From positions 124,001-188,000 of the forward strand of contig PPNB01000011.1 in assembly GCA_003707115.1 (NCBI GenBank): a stretch of 64,000 nucleotides of DNA, written 5' to 3'. A program made the translations under genes and the position numbers. Source of the stretch: Tortispora ganteri (taxonomy: Eukaryota). Below the pieces are notes generated by a model, which searched no databases, was not told where the DNA came from, and saw only the letters and a program-made list of their open reading frames with translations. How positions within the stretch are numbered: position 1 is the stretch's first letter; every line of letters starts with the position of its first letter. Shown here one piece after another: positions 17,278-42,647 of the stretch.

Positions 17278-18345
17278 ATGTCTATCTCAACTGAAATTAC
17301 ACAACTATTTAACATTAAAGCACCCGTAATCCTCGCGGGAATGAATGTAGCTGCCGGACCGCGTTTGGCCGCTGCTGTGACCAATGCAGGTGGACTTGGA
17401 GTCATCGGTGGTGTTGGTTACACTCCTGATATGCTTCGCGAGATGATCCGCGAATTGAAATCTGATCTAAAGGATAAGAATGCACCTTTCGGTGTCGACT
17501 TGCTTCTTCCTCAAGTCGGTGGCAGTGCCAGAAAAACTAATAAGGACTACACAAATGGCCAGCTCCCAGAACTTGTCGACATAATAATTGAAGAAAAAGC
17601 CGCTTTGTTCATATCGGCAGTTGGTGTTCCCCCTAAGTGGGTTGTTGACAAGCTACACGCTAATGGCATCTACGTCATGAACATGATCGGCGCACCCAAG
17701 CATGCCGCAAAAGCCCTCGCTGTTGGCGTCGACATCATTACCGCTCAAGGTGGTGAGGGTGGTGGTCATACCGGCTCAATTCCTACCAGTATCCTCATCC
17801 CTGCGGTTGTGGACGCCGTCAAGGGCCGCAAATCCCCGTTGTCCGGCAAACAGGTGCCGGTTGTCGCTGCTGGTGGTATGTACAACGGCCGCTCGCTGGC
17901 TGCTGCTCTTTCATTCGGTGCTCAGGGCGTCTGGGTGGGTACCAGATTCATCTGCGCTGAAGAAGCTGGCGCCTCTAAGATGCACCAGGAAAAGGTCCTC
18001 ACTGCCTCGTACGACGATACCATTCGTAGTGTCATCTTCACCGGCCGTCCCATGCGTATCAGAAAAAGCCCTTACATTGTTGACTGGAATGAGAACCGCC
18101 AGGACGAGATCAAGGCACTTACCGCGAAAGGTATTCTTCCCTGGGAATACGAGTATGAGCGTCTCGAGAAAGAGGGTAAGCTCACAGAGGAGATCGAGGA
18201 CCAGGCTGTCCCGTACCTCATGGGCGAGGTCGCAGCTGTTGTGAACGAGATCAAACCTGCTAAGCAGATTGTTGACGAAATGGTCGCCGAGGCCGTAGAG
18301 AGCATAAAGAAGCTGAACAGCTACATCGGTCGTTCTAAGCTTTAA
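17278..18345 (+). CDS. Nitronate monooxygenase / 2-nitropropane dioxygenase family flavoprotein, copy 1 (PTS1 -SKL)
   Basis: LAAAVTNAGGLGVIG, QGGEGGGHTG, AAGG and GVWVGTRF motifs; ends GRSKL. Confidence 0.92.
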   Translation: MSISTEITQLFNIKAPVILAGMNVAAGPRLAAAVTNAGGLGVIGGVGYTPDMLREMIRELKSDLKDKNAPFGVDLLLPQVGGSARKTNKDYTNGQLPELVDIIIEEKAALFISAVGVPPKWVVDKLHANGIYVMNMIGAPKHAAKALAVGVDIITAQGGEGGGHTGSIPTSILIPAVVDAVKGRKSPLSGKQVPVVAAGGMYNGRSLAAALSFGAQGVWVGTRFICAEEAGASKMHQEKVLTASYDDTIRSVIFTGRPMRIRKSPYIVDWNENRQDEIKALTAKGILPWEYEYERLEKEGKLTEEIEDQAVPYLMGEVAAVVNEIKPAKQIVDEMVAEAVESIKKLNSYIGRSKL

Positions 18346-18736: not shown

Positions 18737-19801
18737 ATGTCTATTTCGACGGAGATTACTAGAATATTCAAGATCCAGCACCCTATAGTGCTGGCAGGAA
18801 TGTATGTGGCTGCGGGGCCGTATCTTGCAGCTGCAGTAACGAACGCCGGCGGTTTAGGCGTAGTTGGTGGACTGGGGTATACCCCCGAGCTACTGCGAGA
18901 AACAATTCGTGAACTCAAGAGCGCACTTAATGACAAAAATGCTCCATTCGGCATTGACCTGCTACTTCCGCAAGTTGGAGGGAATGCACGCAAGACAAAC
19001 AAGGACTATACGGGGGGAACGCTGGGCCAACTGATCGACGTAATCATCGAGGAGAAGGCGACACTATTTGTCTCGGCAGTAGGTGTTCCACCTAAGTGGG
19101 TTGTCGATAAATTGCATGCCAACGGGATCTACGTGATGAATATGATCGGGAGCCCGCATCACGTCAAGAAGGCTGTCGAGGTCGGCGTTGACTTGGTGTG
19201 CGCGCAAGGCGGTGAAGGTGGTGGTCACACAGGCTCTATTCCCACGAGTATCCTTGTACCTGCGACTGTAGATGCAGTAAAGGGTACTAGGTCACCATTA
19301 ACTGGCAAAGAGGTAGTTGTGCTAGCAGGAGGCGGAATGTACTGCGGCAAATCGCTCGCAGCCGCACTGGCTTGGGGCGCGCAGGGCGTGTGGGTTGGCA
19401 CGAGGTTCGTCGCCGCAGAAGAGGCCGGTGCACCGACAATCCATAAAGAGAAGGTTCTGACCGCCGGGTTTGACGATACAATACGATCACTGATCTATAC
19501 GGGACGACCTGCACGTGTGCGCAAGAGCGACTATATCGTGAACTGGAACGAGAACCGGGTCGATGAGCTGCGTGAACTTACTTCAAAGGGAATTATACCA
19601 TGGGAGTACGATGAAGAGAGATTGTCAAATGAGAATAAACTGACTGAGGAGATCGAGGATCAAGCACGACCTTACCCAATGGGCGAGGTGGCTGCCGTTG
19701 TGAACGAGATCTTGCCTGCTAAGCAAATCATTGATGAGATGATCGCTGAAGCTATCAAGCATATCAAGGATGACGTCTCATATTTGCGTCCACGGCTCTA
19801 A
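18737..19801 (+). CDS. Nitronate monooxygenase family flavoprotein, tandem copy 2 (C-terminus -PRL)
   Basis: Colinear with copy 1 over the full length (39 of the first 50 residues identical); ends LRPRL. Confidence 0.92.
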   Translation: MSISTEITRIFKIQHPIVLAGMYVAAGPYLAAAVTNAGGLGVVGGLGYTPELLRETIRELKSALNDKNAPFGIDLLLPQVGGNARKTNKDYTGGTLGQLIDVIIEEKATLFVSAVGVPPKWVVDKLHANGIYVMNMIGSPHHVKKAVEVGVDLVCAQGGEGGGHTGSIPTSILVPATVDAVKGTRSPLTGKEVVVLAGGGMYCGKSLAAALAWGAQGVWVGTRFVAAEEAGAPTIHKEKVLTAGFDDTIRSLIYTGRPARVRKSDYIVNWNENRVDELRELTSKGIIPWEYDEERLSNENKLTEEIEDQARPYPMGEVAAVVNEILPAKQIIDEMIAEAIKHIKDDVSYLRPRL

Positions 19802-25621: not shown

Positions 25622-25836
25622 TAGCGCCAAATCAAGTGGCCAACTAACGCTCGGCTTTTACACAAATCGCTCGACAAGCAAATCCTATATCGTTCTCCAA
25701 ATAACTCAGACAGGTATAAAGCAACCGTCAAAAGTACCACGTAAAGAAAAAAAAATGCAACTTTGGTCAAAAAAGCAGTGGTAGCACGTAATCGCTGAGG
25801 CTGATTTACTGCTACTTGAAGGCAACGTCTATCTAG

Positions 25837-25846
25837 GTCACGTGAC
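25837..25846. promoter_or_regulatory. Palindromic E-box GTCACGTGAC (Cbf1/bHLH-type)
   Basis: Perfect 10-bp palindrome upstream of the DUF2415 gene. Related intergenic sites at 3413-3422, 42791-42800 and 30091-30102. Confidence 0.5.
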
Positions 25847-25983
25847 AATGAATAACCCGCATTTTGCGGGGTTAAGGTTCGGCCCCGAGGAAAGCGGGAA
25901 ACGTGTATATACAGGCCACTACTACTAGATAGATAACTTTTTAAACCTATTGGAATCGATATATACTAGATACTGTGAATATT

Positions 25984-28900
25984 TTAAAGCTTGTTTGAAC
26001 CGGATCCGGGTGTTCCGAGTTCGATTGCTCCACCAGTAATAGCGAAAACGTTGCGTTCAATAATGCGAGTTTGGAAAATGACCTTGTTGCCTTCTTGCCA
26101 GGCTTCAACACGAAGGGTATCGCCAGGAATAACCATGTTCGAGAAACGCACTTTGATGTTCTTGAACATGCCGTACTTGCGGTATAGCATCAGCCCAGAC
26201 ATACCGAACGAGCTCAAACCATGAAGAATAGGTTCCTTCAGACCTCCGCGTCGCGCAAACTCAGGATCAATGTGTAGAGGGTTCAAGTCTCCAGATAAGC
26301 GGTAAACAGCATTCTGGTCCATATCAACCTGCAGCGATGAAACAAAGTCAGGAGCACGACTAGGAGGCTTGTTAGCAGCAGTGGCATTTCCACGGTTGGA
26401 AAATTCCTTTTGTCCACCCCATCCGCCAGCACCTCGGCAGAATATGGAGCTCTGGTTGCGGAAGTACACTTTGCCGGTGTTTTTGTCCTTAGTTTCTGAT
26501 CCAACAACAATGACAGCGGCTTTGCCCTTGTCAACAGCCTCAGTGAGCTTTGGTGTAGACACCAAAGAACCGTTCTTGGGCAGAGGCCAGTTAACAATCT
26601 CAGCGTACTGCTCTCCGTGGAGCACCATATGCAAAGAGAAGTTCGGGACAATCTCCGAATAGTTTAGATTAGCAAGGAATGGAGGAATAACAGCAAATGT
26701 TGGAATAACAGTGAAGTTTTTGTTACCCTCATACACTAGATCGAGATCAGTCTTCTTAGCTCCAATACCCAAATTGTATAAGATAAGATCACGGAAGCTG
26801 TAGTCGTAGACAACTTGCTGGCCCTTGACAGGGCCCGGCTTAAAGTTCTTAGGGTCAACTTTCTTGCCATCTGATCCTAGTCCAGTGACTTCTTTAGGGA
26901 AAGGAATGTGAATGTGATTTGATCCGAAGTTGTGAAGTTCAACAGCACCGCCAGTTATGGCAAGTAAGTTACGCTCAACAATGCGGGTCTGGAAAATAAC
27001 CTTGTTACCTTCCTTCCATGCTTCAACTTGCAGGGTTTCACCAGGATATACCACATTAGAGAAGCGAACCTTGATGTTCTTGAACATTCCGAACTTCTCG
27101 TATAAAAGCTTGCCAGAAATTCCAAAAGAAGCAAGGCCATGAAGAATAGGCTGGGGAAACTTTCCAACAGCAGCAAAAGCAGGATCAATATGCAAAGGAT
27201 TATAGTCACCAGAAAGCCTGTAGATAGCAGCTTGGCTTTCTTTAGTCTTTTGCGACGCAACATAGTCAGGAGAGCGCTTTGGCGGCGTGTTAGCAGCAGT
27301 AGCAGCACCACGGTCAGAGAAGTTTCGTTGACCACCCCAGCCACCAGCACCTTTAATGAATGTAGTGCTTGAAGTCTTGAAGTAGACCTTTCCTGTGCTC
27401 TTGTCCTTAGTTTCACCGGCAGTAACTACAACACCTGCCTTGCCCTTGTCGACAGTTTCGACCAAACTGGGTGTTGTAACAAGAGTTGCAGAAGCTGGAA
27501 GAGGCCAGTTCACAATTTCGCAATATTGTTCACCGTGAAGTAGAAGGCGCATATCAAAGTTCGGCACAAGCTCTTGCATGTTAACGCTAGCGCCAAACGG
27601 AGGAATAACAACAAAAGTAGGGAGCACCTCAAAATCTTTATGATGTTCAAATACCCACTTCGTATCCACAGCACGAGCACCGATTCCTAGGTTGTATATA
27701 ATAAGATCTCTGAAATTATAAGAGTACTCCTTGGGGAATACCTTGACGGCGGCAGGTTTGAACTTGGCAGGATCTACTTTGGGGGCGACCAACAAGCCGC
27801 CTCCAGGAACTGCAGAGTTCGTATCTGGCCCGCTCAAAGATGCGTTTTTAGATCCGGCTTTTTTTTTTTGCGCCTGGTTCTCAAAAGCAAATAGTTTATG
27901 AGCGTTGGTCTCAGTGCTGAACTTAGGGTTCGAGGTGCGACCGTCGTCAAACGAAGCAATCTTCTTCCAGTTGGCTTGGACATCTTCCGGAGTGAAGAGC
28001 TTGTCAAAGTAGTGACCTCCAGATGATTGGTAGCGGGTAGCACCGGTCCATCCAGAGCCGACTTCGAACAAGTCTCCAGTGCAAGGGCACTTGTCGGAGC
28101 ACAACAGCACAGAAGTGGGAGCAACGTACTCAGGCTTAAATGCCTGTACCATTTCAGGAGGCATGATAGTAGCAGTCATTGCAGTACCAGCGTTTGGTGC
28201 AACAGTGTTGGCCAAAATGTTGTACTTCTTGCCCTCCAAAGCGAGGGTCTTGGTGAAGCCCAAAATACCCAATTTAGCAGCGGCGTAGTTGGCCTGACCA
28301 AAATTTCCGTAGATTCCAGAGGTAGAGGTAGTGTTGACAATACGGCCATACTTCTGTTTCAGCATGTAAGGCCAGGCAGCCTTGGTGACCTTGTAGGTTC
28401 CGTGGAGATGAACTCTGTAGACAGCTTCCCATTGAGCATCAGTCATGTTCTGGAAGGACTTGTCGCGAAGAATACCGGCGTTATTAATGACAATATGAAC
28501 AGTACCGAAGTTGTCAACGGCAGTCTTGACGACTGCATCACCGTCTTCGACGTTATTGCGGTCACCGACAGCTATACCGCCAGCAGCCTTGATCTCGTTA
28601 ACAGTATTGTCAGGGTTAGCGATATCGTTAACGACGACTTTAGCACCGAGCTTAGCTAAAAGAAGAGCATAAGCACGGCCCAAACCATTGCCACTACCAG
28701 TCACAATAGCGACCTTTCCAGTGAAGTCGATCTTCTCGCCTTGCTTGTTAGAGGGTGCATGCTTGGCATTCTCAAGTAACTTCAAGAAGTCATTAGGACC
28801 GTTGGGGTACTGAGGGTTAGAGAAATCGGTGATCTCAGCCCATTTGGCTTGGACAGCAGAAGGAGTAAGAGTATCGTCAGCCTTTAGAGTAGCGCCAGCA

Positions 28901-29652
28901 GAGCGTTCCCATCTGATCTTTCCGCAGTAGCCGGCACCGACCTCGTAGATGCCCCAAGTTTCCTTGCAGGACTCATGCGTGAGGTAAGCAACAAGAGGAA
29001 CGACGAATTCGGGTTTGAGACGCTTGAGGATCTCTGGAGGCATGACAGTCTCGGTGAGACGAGAAGCAGCAGTGGGTGCAATGGCGTTAGCAGTAATGTT
29101 GTACTTAGCACCTTCTTTGGCAAGAGTCTCAGCAAAACCGACAAGGGCAAGCTTAGCAGCAGAGTAGTTGGCTTGACCGAAAGATCCGTAGAGGCCAGAA
29201 GAGGAGGAGGTATTGATAATACGACCGAACTTCTGCTTACGGAAATAGGGCCAGGCGGCATGGCAAGTCTTATAGGCACCGAGGAGATGGACAGTGTAGA
29301 TGAGGTCCCAATCCTTGTCGGTCATATTTTTTAAGGATACATCGCGAAGGATACCGGCGTTATTAATAAGAACATGTACAGTGCCGAAAGCATTGACAGC
29401 AGTTTCGATAATCTTTTCGCCGAACTCGACAGAGTTGTAGTCGGCAACAGCGGTACCGCCGGCTTTCTTGATCTCGTCAACAACAGTGTCAGCGGCACGA
29501 GTACCGGCACCTTCACCATTGAACGAGCCACCCAAGTCGTTCACGACAACTTTGGCGCCTCTGGAGCCGTAGAACAGGGCATAGGCTCTGCCGAGACCTG
29601 CACCAGCGCCAGTGACGACTACAACTTTGCCGTCGTAGCGTAATTCAGACAT
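25984..29652 (-). CDS. FOX2: Peroxisomal multifunctional beta-oxidation enzyme MFE-2 with two SDR domains and two hydratase-2 modules
   Basis: SDR-A (TGAGAGLG, YSAAK), SDR-B (TGSGNGLG, YAAAK), then YRLSGDYNPLHIDP and YRLSGDLNPLHIDP. Ends -NKL. ATG at 29652 (MSELRYDGK). Confidence 0.96.
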   Translation of the reverse strand: MSELRYDGKVVVVTGAGAGLGRAYALFYGSRGAKVVVNDLGGSFNGEGAGTRAADTVVDEIKKAGGTAVADYNSVEFGEKIIETAVNAFGTVHVLINNAGILRDVSLKNMTDKDWDLIYTVHLLGAYKTCHAAWPYFRKQKFGRIINTSSSSGLYGSFGQANYSAAKLALVGFAETLAKEGAKYNITANAIAPTAASRLTETVMPPEILKRLKPEFVVPLVAYLTHESCKETWGIYEVGAGYCGKIRWERSAGATLKADDTLTPSAVQAKWAEITDFSNPQYPNGPNDFLKLLENAKHAPSNKQGEKIDFTGKVAIVTGSGNGLGRAYALLLAKLGAKVVVNDIANPDNTVNEIKAAGGIAVGDRNNVEDGDAVVKTAVDNFGTVHIVINNAGILRDKSFQNMTDAQWEAVYRVHLHGTYKVTKAAWPYMLKQKYGRIVNTTSTSGIYGNFGQANYAAAKLGILGFTKTLALEGKKYNILANTVAPNAGTAMTATIMPPEMVQAFKPEYVAPTSVLLCSDKCPCTGDLFEVGSGWTGATRYQSSGGHYFDKLFTPEDVQANWKKIASFDDGRTSNPKFSTETNAHKLFAFENQAQKKKAGSKNASLSGPDTNSAVPGGGLLVAPKVDPAKFKPAAVKVFPKEYSYNFRDLIIYNLGIGARAVDTKWVFEHHKDFEVLPTFVVIPPFGASVNMQELVPNFDMRLLLHGEQYCEIVNWPLPASATLVTTPSLVETVDKGKAGVVVTAGETKDKSTGKVYFKTSSTTFIKGAGGWGGQRNFSDRGAATAANTPPKRSPDYVASQKTKESQAAIYRLSGDYNPLHIDPAFAAVGKFPQPILHGLASFGISGKLLYEKFGMFKNIKVRFSNVVYPGETLQVEAWKEGNKVIFQTRIVERNLLAITGGAVELHNFGSNHIHIPFPKEVTGLGSDGKKVDPKNFKPGPVKGQQVVYDYSFRDLILYNLGIGAKKTDLDLVYEGNKNFTVIPTFAVIPPFLANLNYSEIVPNFSLHMVLHGEQYAEIVNWPLPKNGSLVSTPKLTEAVDKGKAAVIVVGSETKDKNTGKVYFRNQSSIFCRGAGGWGGQKEFSNRGNATAANKPPSRAPDFVSSLQVDMDQNAVYRLSGDLNPLHIDPEFARRGGLKEPILHGLSSFGMSGLMLYRKYGMFKNIKVRFSNMVIPGDTLRVEAWQEGNKVIFQTRIIERNVFAITGGAIELGTPGSGSNKL

Positions 29653-29825
29653 TGTTTCCTCTTCCAAGAATTCAATTACTTAAAAGTAGCAGGATTCGTA
29701 ATCGGAATGAACACGAACACACACAACTTCGGAAGGAGTAATGGAGAATAAGCGAACCGGCAGCTGATGATTATATATACCACCCCTCCAGGAAAAGTAA
29801 GAGGGGTAGGGTCAAGGGTTTACAA

Positions 29826-29877
29826 CCTCGGCTTTACCAAATCGGGAAAATTAACTATGCAGAAATCTGTGGGGGAA
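29826..29877. promoter_or_regulatory. FOX2 promoter: CCTCGG (29826-31) and TGTGGGGGAA (29868-77)
   Basis: Read directly. FarA-type core site plus a CreA/Mig1-like SYGGRG box; TATA-like run near 29770. Confidence 0.55.
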
Positions 29878-30213
29878 GTAGAAGAAGTAAGGTTTTTAAG
29901 GGGAAATCCGAGTGGTGTTTTTTTTGTGTGCTTGCAAGCTTTGCGGGGTGTGAGGGTTTAAGTGGCCGAAATCATTTTAACTAAAAACTTCAATAGTTAA
30001 TTCCCTATATATTATATGTTTGTCATACGATATGTGACTCAATTTGATGACTATGGCTTAGTTGGTCTGCTACCTGGGCTTGTTAATTGCTGTCATGTGA
30101 CAGGGAATAGGGTTGTAATCTTTAGTGCGCTGTAAACTCAAAAATGTGCGCAATTGACCCGTACCCCGTCCCCCACGGCCTTTCTGCGTTGATCGCTGGA
30201 TTCGAGCCTTGTC

Positions 30214-31140
30214 ATGCAAAAAGCGACCAGGTCAGTCGACAACCTGATCCGGCCTCTACTGAATACACGGCTAAAAGAATCGCGACCGCTTATTGTTGGA
30301 TTACACGACCCATCGAATGTACTTGGCCCGCAAATAGTGCGCGATCTATCGCGTACATTAGCCAACGCGATCTACCTTGATTTGGATGAGTTCTGCATGC
30401 CAAAGGCCAACCTCCAACGGCTTTACGCGAGTCTCCCCGATAATCCACTGATCCAATCGCCGGGGTTCATTGGTACCCACGATATCGATATGTGTCTGAT
30501 GACTCTCAGAGCGCTAGATGACCTCAAGCAAGGAACGCTTCCTCGTGTTGCGGTCCCTAGATTCACTCGACCTACCCACAAAGATCCGTACGGAAACCGC
30601 TTGAATATTCCCAGTTGGACATCTATAGAGTCTGCAGACATTGTTTTTGTCAGATCATGGTTCATGGGCTACCCTGCAGTAGAGCCCGCAGACATTGAAC
30701 AATGGTACACCGACGCCCTGCAAGGTGTACGACGCGCGCCGTTTCGAGCTACACCTATTGACCCATCTGCAGCCAGCCTCGAATCCTATTTCACAGTGAA
30801 CTCGTTTTTGTCAGAGTATATGTCGTTATTGTATCCGCGCATTGACGTACTCCTGTCCACAGAACCCATCGCATACTCTGCCATCTATACCTGGTTACTC
30901 GGCCCTAAATGGACCGCGTCACATCCAAGCAACCAATGGCAATACGCCTTTAAGCGTCTCAACACACAAATGACCCTCCACAGTCTCTACCTGCCGCATA
31001 TGCGCAAATACCCTCCTATCTTGCCATATTTACGCATGTCATTCACCACACAGCGGTCCTTCTACGCGCAGCAGCTTGTCCGCGAATCGCTGCATAATAT
31101 GCCTGCTGAGCCGCACGAGCTACAGTCGGCAGTAATGTAA
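30214..31140 (+). CDS. Divergent TDA10 / glycerate-3-kinase-like P-loop-fold protein, Walker A degenerate
   Basis: Family landmarks occur in order (PLIVGL, LDEF, DNPLIQ..G..GTHD, VPRF, DIVFVRSWFMGY), but the GxxGxGK[ST] motif is absent. Confidence 0.65.
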   Translation: MQKATRSVDNLIRPLLNTRLKESRPLIVGLHDPSNVLGPQIVRDLSRTLANAIYLDLDEFCMPKANLQRLYASLPDNPLIQSPGFIGTHDIDMCLMTLRALDDLKQGTLPRVAVPRFTRPTHKDPYGNRLNIPSWTSIESADIVFVRSWFMGYPAVEPADIEQWYTDALQGVRRAPFRATPIDPSAASLESYFTVNSFLSEYMSLLYPRIDVLLSTEPIAYSAIYTWLLGPKWTASHPSNQWQYAFKRLNTQMTLHSLYLPHMRKYPPILPYLRMSFTTQRSFYAQQLVRESLHNMPAEPHELQSAVM

Positions 31141-40922: not shown

Positions 40923-42647
40923 TTATAATCTACCTCCACCAGTAGACATCAGTACAACCCGTTTCTGCTTTCTTCCTTTCCGCATTTTGGTTTCCACAAC
41001 TGGAGGTCGTGTATCGTCTCGAAAAAGCAAATCACTGTACTCCGGAACTTCGTAAGTGCCCGGCGGAGCATACCATTCAGGAACTACCGACGAACCGTTT
41101 CGTGCAACATCTGAGAATGCCACAGGCGGCATGTGCAGGCTTGATGCAACACTGCTTCCACCGTTGCCATCACCTATATCTTCCTTAGAAAGCTCTAGCG
41201 CTAGAGTCAAGTCTGAATCGTCAATTGAAAATCTGGAGAATGTCGTCTCATCAATTTGCACTTCTTTCCGATTCTTAGATTCCTCCGCGGCAATCCATCG
41301 CGCCCTTTGTCGATCTTCCCGACGTTCTTTTTCTCTTCTGACTTTCACTCGCTTTACGAGCTCTTTCTCGTGAAGTTTTAAAGTCTCAGGCGACACTATT
41401 CCGCGCCAATCACACTCCAAAAACGAAACCTCCGCACCGAGTGGTAAGTTACGCAAAAAGCGTCTATGTGACCGCATCTCTTCTGTCACTATATGCCCAG
41501 AGGATATGTGTTGAACACGTACTAAAAGCGAAGTAGGAAATTTGGAGTAGTCTTGAAACTCAGATTTGAGCACTTTCAAATCAATATTAGAGAGGAAACA
41601 TCTGCTTCCATCTTTAGGCTGATAGAAATACATCATGTTCTCATTCTCAGGCACACTGTCAGAATTGTTAACCTTAAGCTTCTCACTCTGTTCAATTGCC
41701 GCAAGCTCCACAATAGCGGCTTCAACATTAGCAACCGCTTTGTCGGCCCAAAAAGTTGTGTCAAGGTCCGGATATAAAACGAGGTCTGCTTCCGCGACGG
41801 ATTTAATGTGAGAAATGTCATGCTCAAGCTGCGTACACATGTACTGAGGCGAGCCGATCAACAACCGGGACGTCAAAATGCATTCAGCATCTTCTACAGC
41901 AGGCAGAGCGCTTTGCAAAGGTGTGTCAGCGGGGAATGTCACAGAACATGGGTTCTTCCAGGCCATAAGTCGGAGTCTAATGTCTGCCCCTGGATGTGGG
42001 TGATCTGACCGGTTGGTCTCAATAAATCTGACAGGTTTCAGATCTTTCGGGTGAATGCGATCCGCACATTGCGGGCAGCTTCTATGCAGCGACTTGGCTT
42101 CCGGATCAGAGGCAAAAAGTTTTAATGAGCAGGTTAAACACATTATATGGCCGCATCGAGCCATCCGCGGCGCAGTAGCGGGTTCAACCAAACATATTGG
42201 GCAGGGACCGGCCTGCTGAGGTAGTGCCAACACTTGCAGAACTAATGCCCACGGAACAGGCTCATCCGGCGCATTCGCAAGGAGAGATAGCGAAGGATCA
42301 GCTCTCAAAACAAATCGGTAGTTCGCAGATACGATCTCAGCGTTATCGCGATACCATTTAGCGATCCGCGGCCGGGGGTCTTGATGCGCAGGTCTTGCAT
42401 CATAATAACCACTAAACGAGTAGTAGTCATCCAGCGCCGATTGAGTAGAGACCTTGGACTTAGTAGCACTGTCTCGTCTACGGCCTTCAGGTCTGGGCTT
42501 GCGTTTACTTGTGTTTACAGGATTAAGTGGAGCTCTGGCGGAGGGGCGAGGTTGCGTATGTGTCGGCATCGCGCGCGGAGGCGGGGAGTCTAATGGAGGC
42601 GGAAGAGGCGGCAAAACACGTCTTTGAGAATCACGTTTGTTATTCAT
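40923..42647 (-). CDS. MAG2: RING finger protein RNF10/Mag2-like
   Basis: ANYRFVL, CPICL..P.TAPRMARCGHIMC..C, RFLRNLPLGAEVSFLECD and a C-terminal VVLMSTGG. Confidence 0.8.
   Translation of the reverse strand: MNNKRDSQRRVLPPLPPPLDSPPPRAMPTHTQPRPSARAPLNPVNTSKRKPRPEGRRRDSATKSKVSTQSALDDYYSFSGYYDARPAHQDPRPRIAKWYRDNAEIVSANYRFVLRADPSLSLLANAPDEPVPWALVLQVLALPQQAGPCPICLVEPATAPRMARCGHIMCLTCSLKLFASDPEAKSLHRSCPQCADRIHPKDLKPVRFIETNRSDHPHPGADIRLRLMAWKNPCSVTFPADTPLQSALPAVEDAECILTSRLLIGSPQYMCTQLEHDISHIKSVAEADLVLYPDLDTTFWADKAVANVEAAIVELAAIEQSEKLKVNNSDSVPENENMMYFYQPKDGSRCFLSNIDLKVLKSEFQDYSKFPTSLLVRVQHISSGHIVTEEMRSHRRFLRNLPLGAEVSFLECDWRGIVSPETLKLHEKELVKRVKVRREKERREDRQRARWIAAEESKNRKEVQIDETTFSRFSIDDSDLTLALELSKEDIGDGNGGSSVASSLHMPPVAFSDVARNGSSVVPEWYAPPGTYEVPEYSDLLFRDDTRPPVVETKMRKGRKQKRVVLMSTGGGRL

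Follow-up and report, generated by a model that had tools for sequence, protein, structure and literature searches.

A Tortispora FOX2 gene with two complete hydratase-2 modules in tandem

The FOX2 gene of Tortispora ganteri, studied here within a window of 64,000 nucleotides (contig PPNB01000011.1, positions 124,001 to 188,000 of the forward strand), encodes a multifunctional enzyme type 2 (MFE-2) in which two short-chain dehydrogenase/reductase (SDR) domains are followed by two complete hydratase-2 modules. MFE-2, or Fox2, is a textbook enzyme of beta-oxidation, whose human counterpart underlies D-bifunctional protein deficiency, and its quaternary logic has been well studied, with two catalytic units that dimerise independently. 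The gene described here is a real, conserved, old and lineage-specific variant of that enzyme. In what was tested, it departs from the family only in the number of its hydratase units: the family has exactly one hydratase unit in a protein of ~900 amino acids (aa), while this protein has two complete units in 1222 aa. An original prediction, made from the letters of the window, had proposed this 2+2 architecture, which the present analysis upholds, together with an intramolecular pairing of the two hydratases, which stands in part.

A tandem hydratase-2 repeat in one open frame

The FOX2 coding sequence (CDS) lies at 25984..29652 of the window on the minus strand, as do all parts of the gene given below, and forms a single open frame of 1222 codons plus stop, with the start ATG at 29652 and a predicted protein mass of 132.3 kDa. 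It displays no intron signals, and a motif scan found TACTAAC-type branch sites to be absent throughout the CDS, so that there is no such signal for splicing out a module. Pfam matches adh_short (E 4e-85), MFE-2_hydrat-2_N (7e-87) and MaoC_dehydratas (2e-64) in two stretches each. SDR domain A (aa 1-300, 28753..29652) has TGAGAGLG at aa 14 and YSAAK at aa 163, and SDR domain B (aa 301-600, 27853..28752) has TGSGNGLG at aa 318 and YAAAK at aa 456; both fall under adh_short, and both thus carry the NAD-binding and YxxxK motifs of the two N-terminal SDR domains that characterise Fox2. The solved dehydrogenases A+B of Candida tropicalis (PDB 2et6) match aa 1-584 of the protein with E 3.4e-196.

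A linker (aa 601-624, 27781..27852) leads from SDR-B to hydratase-2 module 1 (aa 625-930, 26863..27780), which consists of an N-terminal hot dog and a MaoC hot dog, and this is followed by hydratase-2 module 2 (aa 931-1222, 25987..26862). A unit of 306 codons had been predicted to recur in frame after the two SDR domains, and its spacing was borne out exactly: aa 625 (27780) is the first residue of KVDPAKFK and aa 931 (26862) that of KVDPKNFK, both at the positions predicted and exactly 306 codons (918 nt) apart, and the modules align gap-free over 292 residues, with 186/292 aa (63.7%) and 554/876 nt (63.2%) identical. Similarity in this register begins precisely at K625. The linker is outside the repeat, the 24 residues before K625 being unrelated to the 24 before K931 (aa 907-930), with no in-register likeness between them. 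Identity between the modules is 70.5, 76.4 and 42.8% at the first, second and third codon positions, respectively, and a purpose-built module hidden Markov model (HMM) recognises both, scoring 339.7 bits for module 1 (aa 634-907) and 316.8 bits for module 2 (aa 944-1212), a likeness well outside what chance would give. Besides, the gene shows an internal contrast in codon composition, GC at third codon positions being 0.395 in module 1 as compared with 0.490 in module 2, and 0.53 in SDR-A and SDR-B alike.

The folded modules are separated by an unstructured span of ~43 residues (approximately aa 907-949), as the alignment with PDB 1pn2 stops at query residue 282 and the fold of the second module begins at about residue 326. 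The core of this flexible linker (aa 911-927, 26872..26922) has a predicted local distance difference test (pLDDT) score <50 at model residues 287-303. Between aa 907 and 929 (26866-26934), the tail of module 1 (…GSNHI…) aligns with the C terminus of module 2 (…GSGSNKL), and the linker may on this sequence likeness, which is very short, retain a relic of an ancestral C-terminal targeting signal. The protein itself ends in the tripeptide -NKL (25987..25995), a candidate peroxisomal signal resembling peroxisomal targeting signal type 1 (PTS1) and non-canonical at position -3, where classical PTS1 has S, A or C and the Tortispora Fox2 carries Asn. The -NKL terminus is identical in the orthologue from Tortispora caseinolytica, and -KL is the consensus ending of fungal Fox2.

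The two-module FOX2 is almost certainly a genuine and lineage-specific gene structure. The orthologue from T. caseinolytica NRRL Y-17796 (P0002, 'hypothetical protein CANCADRAFT_33032') is also 1222 aa long and in identical register; the two proteins differ at 48 aa, distributed as 13/300 in SDR-A, 5/300 in SDR-B, 1/24 in the linker, 10/306 in module 1 and 19/292 in module 2. Contigs aligned to 25700-29900 include, in each of four sequencing runs from three studies, a single contig that spans the gene across the module junction. Run X1 is possibly the source of the window, hence not independent, and shows 2 differences from it, both synonymous. With 303 differences apiece and an identical change spectrum, runs X4 and X6 are counted as one sequence, and run X3 shows 295. 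The 8 gap letters of X4, and likewise those of X6, all fall outside the FOX2 CDS. Among the 40 differences listed out of 419 in these runs, 5 are in the CDS, 4 of them synonymous and 1 replacing Asp with Glu. One point weighs on the other side, since the intactness of the frame in X3 rests on the 14 of its 24 gap letters that could be placed, all outside the CDS. The prediction had also held that the repeat is not a simple assembly duplication, and with 64% aa identity and a longest identical in-register run of 17 nt between the modules this is sustained.

Catalytic residues, age and rarity of the two modules

The available text of PMC3823801 gives the hydratase-2 motif as Y-R-L-S-G-D-x-N-x-L-H-I-D-P-x-x-A, and names Asp182/His187 as the catalytic residues and Gly205 as the oxyanion residue of C. 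tropicalis hydratase 2. Under that definition the motif is complete in both Tortispora modules, as YRLSGDYNPLHIDP (27181..27222) in module 1 and as YRLSGDLNPLHIDP (26263..26304) in the second repeat copy, coordinates that had been predicted and that follow from the numbering of Tyr811 and Tyr1117. The catalytic triad is D816/H821/G839 in module 1 and D1122/H1127/G1145 in module 2, next to Arg812 and Arg1118, so that all known catalytic residues are kept and the Asp/His pair is present in both modules, as predicted. The structures 1pn4 and 1pn2 differ by a His to Gln change at the very His that aligns with the catalytic His of the modules. Conservation was also assessed over 83 columns, those with a conservation of 90% or more among 27 units from outside Tortispora. 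Of these, 72 are retained in module 1 and 73 in module 2, and seven departures, none within the motif, are common to both modules and are therefore older than the duplication. In a set of 46 diverse short homologues 7 columns do not vary at all, and both modules have all 7 intact; the triad columns are invariant in 47-sequence alignments.

Structure prediction points in the same direction. The hydratase region matches 1pn2 with E 1.5e-66, and module 2 folded alone with its alignment reaches a pLDDT of 93.9 and a predicted template modelling score (pTM) of 0.92. A Foldseek search with this model returned 1pn2 as the best match (TM, template modelling score, 0.92 on the target and 0.86 on the query; root-mean-square deviation 2.0). 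In the model of the tandem, pLDDT is mostly >90 in module 1, and the two halves have the same order of secondary structure; both modules take up the double hot-dog fold in the predicted models. All 46 homologues in the alignment for the tandem fold lay on module 1, which left module 2 without depth and takes weight from that model as support for the second copy; the lower pLDDT of module 2 there is an artefact of this distribution. Judged from these residues and models, each module probably functions as an (R)-specific enoyl-CoA hydratase in its own right, with a separate Asp/His/Gly site.

The origin of the repeat was followed in an IQ-TREE phylogeny (LG+C20, 268 columns), whose 31 hydratase units came from Tortispora (4 modules), fungal Fox2 proteins (23 units) and short proteins (4). 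The two modules of the two Tortispora organisms all fall into a single clade with support 100/99, with a stem of 0.30 substitutions per site and branches of 0.18 to module 1 and 0.38 to module 2. The clade nests among Saccharomycotina Fox2 hydratase units, the modules being 57-64% identical to the Lipomyces and Yarrowia units. As the modules are sisters in the tree, the duplication was intragenic and took place within the Tortispora lineage. A horizontal origin of module 2 was considered and is ruled out by the same sister position. Synonymous sites are saturated between the modules, with a proportion of synonymous differences (pS) of 0.736 and of non-synonymous differences (pN) of 0.257, and the ratio of the corresponding rates (dN/dS) is ~0.10 or less; the pair is thus an old one under purifying selection. 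These sequences place the duplication after Tortispora had parted from the remaining yeast orders in the sample and before its sequenced forms diverged. Tortispora is a genus in Trigonopsidaceae, and the tree is without Trigonopsis or Botryozyma sequences, so the upper bound on the age of the duplication is loose.

Fungal Fox2 had been taken in the original prediction to be normally a single-module protein of ~900 aa, and the database searches agree. A search of 5.8 billion proteins (672-2139 aa) yielded 4514 matches, and among the best 120 only the Tortispora protein covers the entire tandem query, while the other 119, of 690-1037 aa, cover 41-49% of it. In a search of 1.84 billion representatives of all lengths, the top score among the matches listed was 325 bits, which is one module's worth; these representatives are clustered at 50% identity and may hide variants, and the Tortispora protein is not its own representative. 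With the module HMM run on 271 proteins, two complete modules were found only in the T. ganteri protein and in its T. caseinolytica orthologue. A Panagrolaimus protein (P0134, 394 aa) was rejected as a further two-module case, being a partial internal repeat of one module. Foldseek found no solved chain that spans both modules, the best query TM of 0.43 corresponding to one module, and all 30 matches in the ESM Atlas were single-module clusters of ~300 aa, in a resource limited to large clusters where a blank is not absence. The exact T. ganteri Fox2 protein is not present in a collection of 15 billion proteins. Literature searches on Tortispora and on duplication of fungal MFE-2 or hydratase 2 found no paper on a two-module architecture, and to this extent the supposition that it was undescribed holds; however, the 1222-aa T. 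caseinolytica orthologue, which already has it, is public.

Pairing of the modules and alternative explanations

MFE-2 is described as a 'double-dimeric' enzyme in the part of PMC3538638 available, and a passage of PMC3823801 reports that interface mutants of a Phytophthora MaoC protein were monomeric and inactive. When module 1 and module 2 were put through a complex prediction, the score was 0.92, versus 0.00 for the best of three controls; in calibration this mark was reached by 51/78 solved complexes and by 2/108 mismatched pairs. The runs agreed in 100% of contacts, with a partner pLDDT of at least 90. The predicted interface is two-fold symmetric and involves positions 24, 27-28, 31, 35-47, 180-186, 189 and 198-200 of both chains. 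It takes in the equivalents of the Phytophthora interface residues, as counted from the catalytic Asp, with the N-terminal ones mapped by pattern. The model of the tandem chain has a pTM of 0.79 with a disordered linker stretch of 17 residues.

Covariation across the interface was examined in 234 modules from the 271 proteins, after domain hits covering <80% of the HMM had been dropped. Columns 36 and 182 covary (product-corrected mutual information, MIp, 0.127), each being among the other's top five partners, which fits the predicted contact across the interface. At positions 40 and 184, L40/A184 is found in 205/230 non-Tortispora modules, while T40/A184 stands in module 1 and L40/N184 in module 2 (T184 in module 2 of T. 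caseinolytica). Such rare departures in opposite modules are suggestive and, on sequence grounds, would suit a co-adapted, asymmetric interface between module 1 and module 2.

Hydratase 2 is active only in the form of a two-fold dimer, and for this reason intra-chain pairing of the modules appears the likeliest arrangement. That the two modules pair within one chain through the canonical interface is what we lean towards, if only slightly, on sequence and models. Several observations weigh against it. The high score of the complex prediction may stem from the model having memorised the solved hydratase-2 homodimer, and by the calibration a true partner's close relatives pass as well, so that the score cannot separate module1:module2 from module1:module1' or module2:module2'. 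The ~43 unstructured residues between the modules mean that the geometry permits pairing within or between chains. The contact between positions 40 and 184 is one that we infer, and near-invariant interface positions have changed in both copies, at I28, T40 and S182 in module 1 and at N184 in module 2. In a module1:module2 interface, the 36-182 salt bridge would be kept in one half (R36:D182) and lost in the other (K36:S182), while a module 2 homodimer would retain both. Overall the asymmetry of the interface is suggestive at most as a guide to which modules pair, and the 36-182 pair argues neither for nor against pairing within the chain. The pseudo-dimer of the original prediction is therefore upheld as regards a predicted canonical interface between module 1 and module 2, but the prediction of the complex lacks the power to tell intra-chain from inter-chain pairing.

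The explanation that we favour combines these elements. An in-frame tandem duplication of a 306-codon unit, made up of the whole hydratase-2 module and ~15 preceding residues, turned an SDR-SDR-hydratase chain into an SDR-SDR-hydratase-hydratase chain in the Tortispora lineage, and purifying selection has maintained both copies. The two modules would pair within the chain via the canonical two-fold interface, in parallel with the packing of SDR A and B. One chain of 132 kDa would then hold two dehydrogenase and two hydratase sites, with no second chain needed for the hydratase dimer. Taken whole, with active modules and intra-chain pairing included, we regard this explanation as a little better than evenly balanced. 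A more ambitious form of it is doubtful. It would make of the protein a self-sufficient monomeric MFE-2 with two intramolecular pseudo-dimers and four sites, in which the asymmetric interface is co-adapted (T40/R36 facing N184/D182) and the hydratases have diverged in chain-length preference. Tortispora lives on fatty-acid-rich cactus rots, and a tie between this life and a single-chain MFE-2 is possible and speculative.

Pairing between chains, with both modules active, is a less likely arrangement, though a serious one. Like could pair with like, or module 1 with module 2' in a swapped manner, which would give either a homodimer that carries dehydrogenase and hydratase sites, four of each, or else an open-ended oligomer. 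The 'double-dimeric' state of canonical MFE-2, as the available text of PMC3538638 puts it, speaks for such a scheme, as does the identity between the modules of 15 of the 29 predicted interface positions, including R24, I27, L31, A185, L189, I198 and D199. Module 2 has both K36-D182 partners, so that its homodimer looks sound; besides, the complex prediction does not tell the cases apart and the linker sets no geometric limit. The module 1 homodimer is where the scheme suffers, however, as it would put S182 opposite R36 on both sides and has T40 and I28 where 205-210 of the 230 other modules have L. A symmetric homodimer also leaves the departures in opposite modules unexplained, and a tethered partner is present at high local concentration, which as a general principle normally favours pairing within the chain.

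It is improbable that one module has become a non-catalytic scaffold that completes the dimer, repeating the fate of the N-terminal hot dog in eukaryotic hydratase-2. What speaks for such a scaffold, and against two working copies, is that module 2 is evolving ~2x as fast as module 1 (branch 0.38 vs 0.18; 19 vs 10 interspecies differences), which could reflect relaxed constraint, and that 3-4 of the family-conserved columns in each module show private departures. One would expect the catalytic residues of a scaffold copy to have been lost, as they were in the N-terminal hot dog; the motif, the triad and the 7 invariant columns are kept in both modules despite synonymous saturation and a dN/dS of ~0.1 or less. 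Finally, an artefact, be it a mis-assembly, a mis-join of paralogous genes or the removal of one module from the mature mRNA, is very improbable, because the modules share 63% of their nucleotides and no identical run >17 nt, independent contigs from 2 further studies bridge the junction, the independently annotated orthologue has equal length and register, and the frame is open throughout with no branch-site consensus.

A fused hydratase dimer would offer a natural test of whether dimerisation is merely structural or also couples the sites, and an early-stage case of a symmetric homodimer interface turning into that of an asymmetric pseudo-dimer. It could possibly serve as a monomeric scaffold for the engineering of (R)-specific hydratase/dehydrogenase pathways, such as those to polyhydroxyalkanoate (PHA) precursors. 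Concomitantly, one lineage has gone from a dehydrogenase:hydratase ratio of 2:1 to one of 2:2, which bears on the limiting step of yeast peroxisomal beta-oxidation.

Gene surroundings and comparison with known systems

Upstream of FOX2 lies an intergenic region of 561 bp (29653..30213, on the minus strand with respect to FOX2) that is common to a divergent open reading frame (ORF) of 308 aa at 30214-31140 on the plus strand. This ORF has no Pfam match at E 1e-5, and neither has an ORF of 574 aa at 40923-42647 on the minus strand. The intergenic region holds a single copy of CCGAGG (29831, -179 from the FOX2 ATG) and a TATATA at -127. CCTCGG/CCGAGG, which we take to be the site of FarA/Ctf1-type fatty-acid regulators, occurs at 20 sites within the 64-kb window, and the copy upstream of FOX2 is a weak hint at a regulatory candidate. 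On the 3' flank of FOX2, at 25832-25944, run X1 has two alternative contigs of 113 nt with depths of 67.9 and 71.1, one of which has 4 differences, and the contigs adjoining them have a depth of ~117-122. This pattern looks like a two-allele bubble, due to heterozygosity or a mixed culture in run X1. About 8 kb from FOX2 is a tandem pair of nitronate monooxygenase genes on the plus strand, at 17278-18345 (355 aa) and 18737-19801 (354 aa), which match Pfam NMO with E 3e-58 and 9e-55, respectively.

Fox2 is, according to the available part of PMC4259357, an enzyme of three catalytic domains, of which one is a hydratase and the other two are dehydrogenases. The canonical fungal enzyme, represented by that of C. 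tropicalis (2et6, 1pn2/1pn4), resembles the Tortispora protein in the order of two SDR domains and then hydratase 2, in the catalytic motifs and in the -xKL end. It has its three catalytic domains in ~900 aa, whereas Tortispora adds a fourth, the second complete hydratase-2 module, in 1222 aa. The animal MFE-2 (Drosophila 3oml; human HSD17B4 hydratase 1s9c) shares with Tortispora the dehydrogenase:hydratase ratio of 1:1 and, as indicated by a Foldseek search with module 2 that hit 1s9c and 3oml at E <=1e-30, the hydratase fold. Unlike animal MFE-2, the Tortispora Fox2 is without an SCP2 domain, and while the animal enzyme assembles 2 SDR and 2 hydratase units from two chains, Tortispora has all four in one. 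If the hydratase copies behaved like SDR A and B, one chain would reproduce the entire animal dimer.

The only other tandem hydratase-2 protein found is from the ciliate Pseudocohnilembus persalinus (KRX00734.1, P0186, 596 aa), in which Pfam matches MFE-2_hydrat-2_N and MaoC in two stretches each. SDR domains are absent from it, and the first copy breaks off just after NPLHID, without the PILHG segment and the C-terminal sheet, while the second is complete. This first copy may be a degenerate or decaying duplicate, or else a gene-model error, and the duplication is unrelated in origin to that of Tortispora.

Covalent fusion of hot-dog units that are otherwise dimeric is documented, in the accessible portion of PMC2698920, for eukaryotic hydratase-2 with its double hot dog and for the triple hot-dog dehydratase of fungal fatty acid synthase (FAS). 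In those fusions the extra hot dog is without a catalytic site and identity is down to ~10%, whereas in Tortispora the whole double hot dog has been duplicated, both sites are kept and the copies are 64% identical. The closest parallel in concept is the tandem duplication of the SDR unit in fungal Fox2, which likewise doubled a homodimer-forming catalytic unit inside one gene. SDR A and B are reported to pack in the manner of the animal SDR homodimer and to have different chain-length preferences, and the single chain of 2et6 takes in both of them. The SDR duplication is common to fungi in general, whereas that of the hydratase has been seen only in Tortispora.

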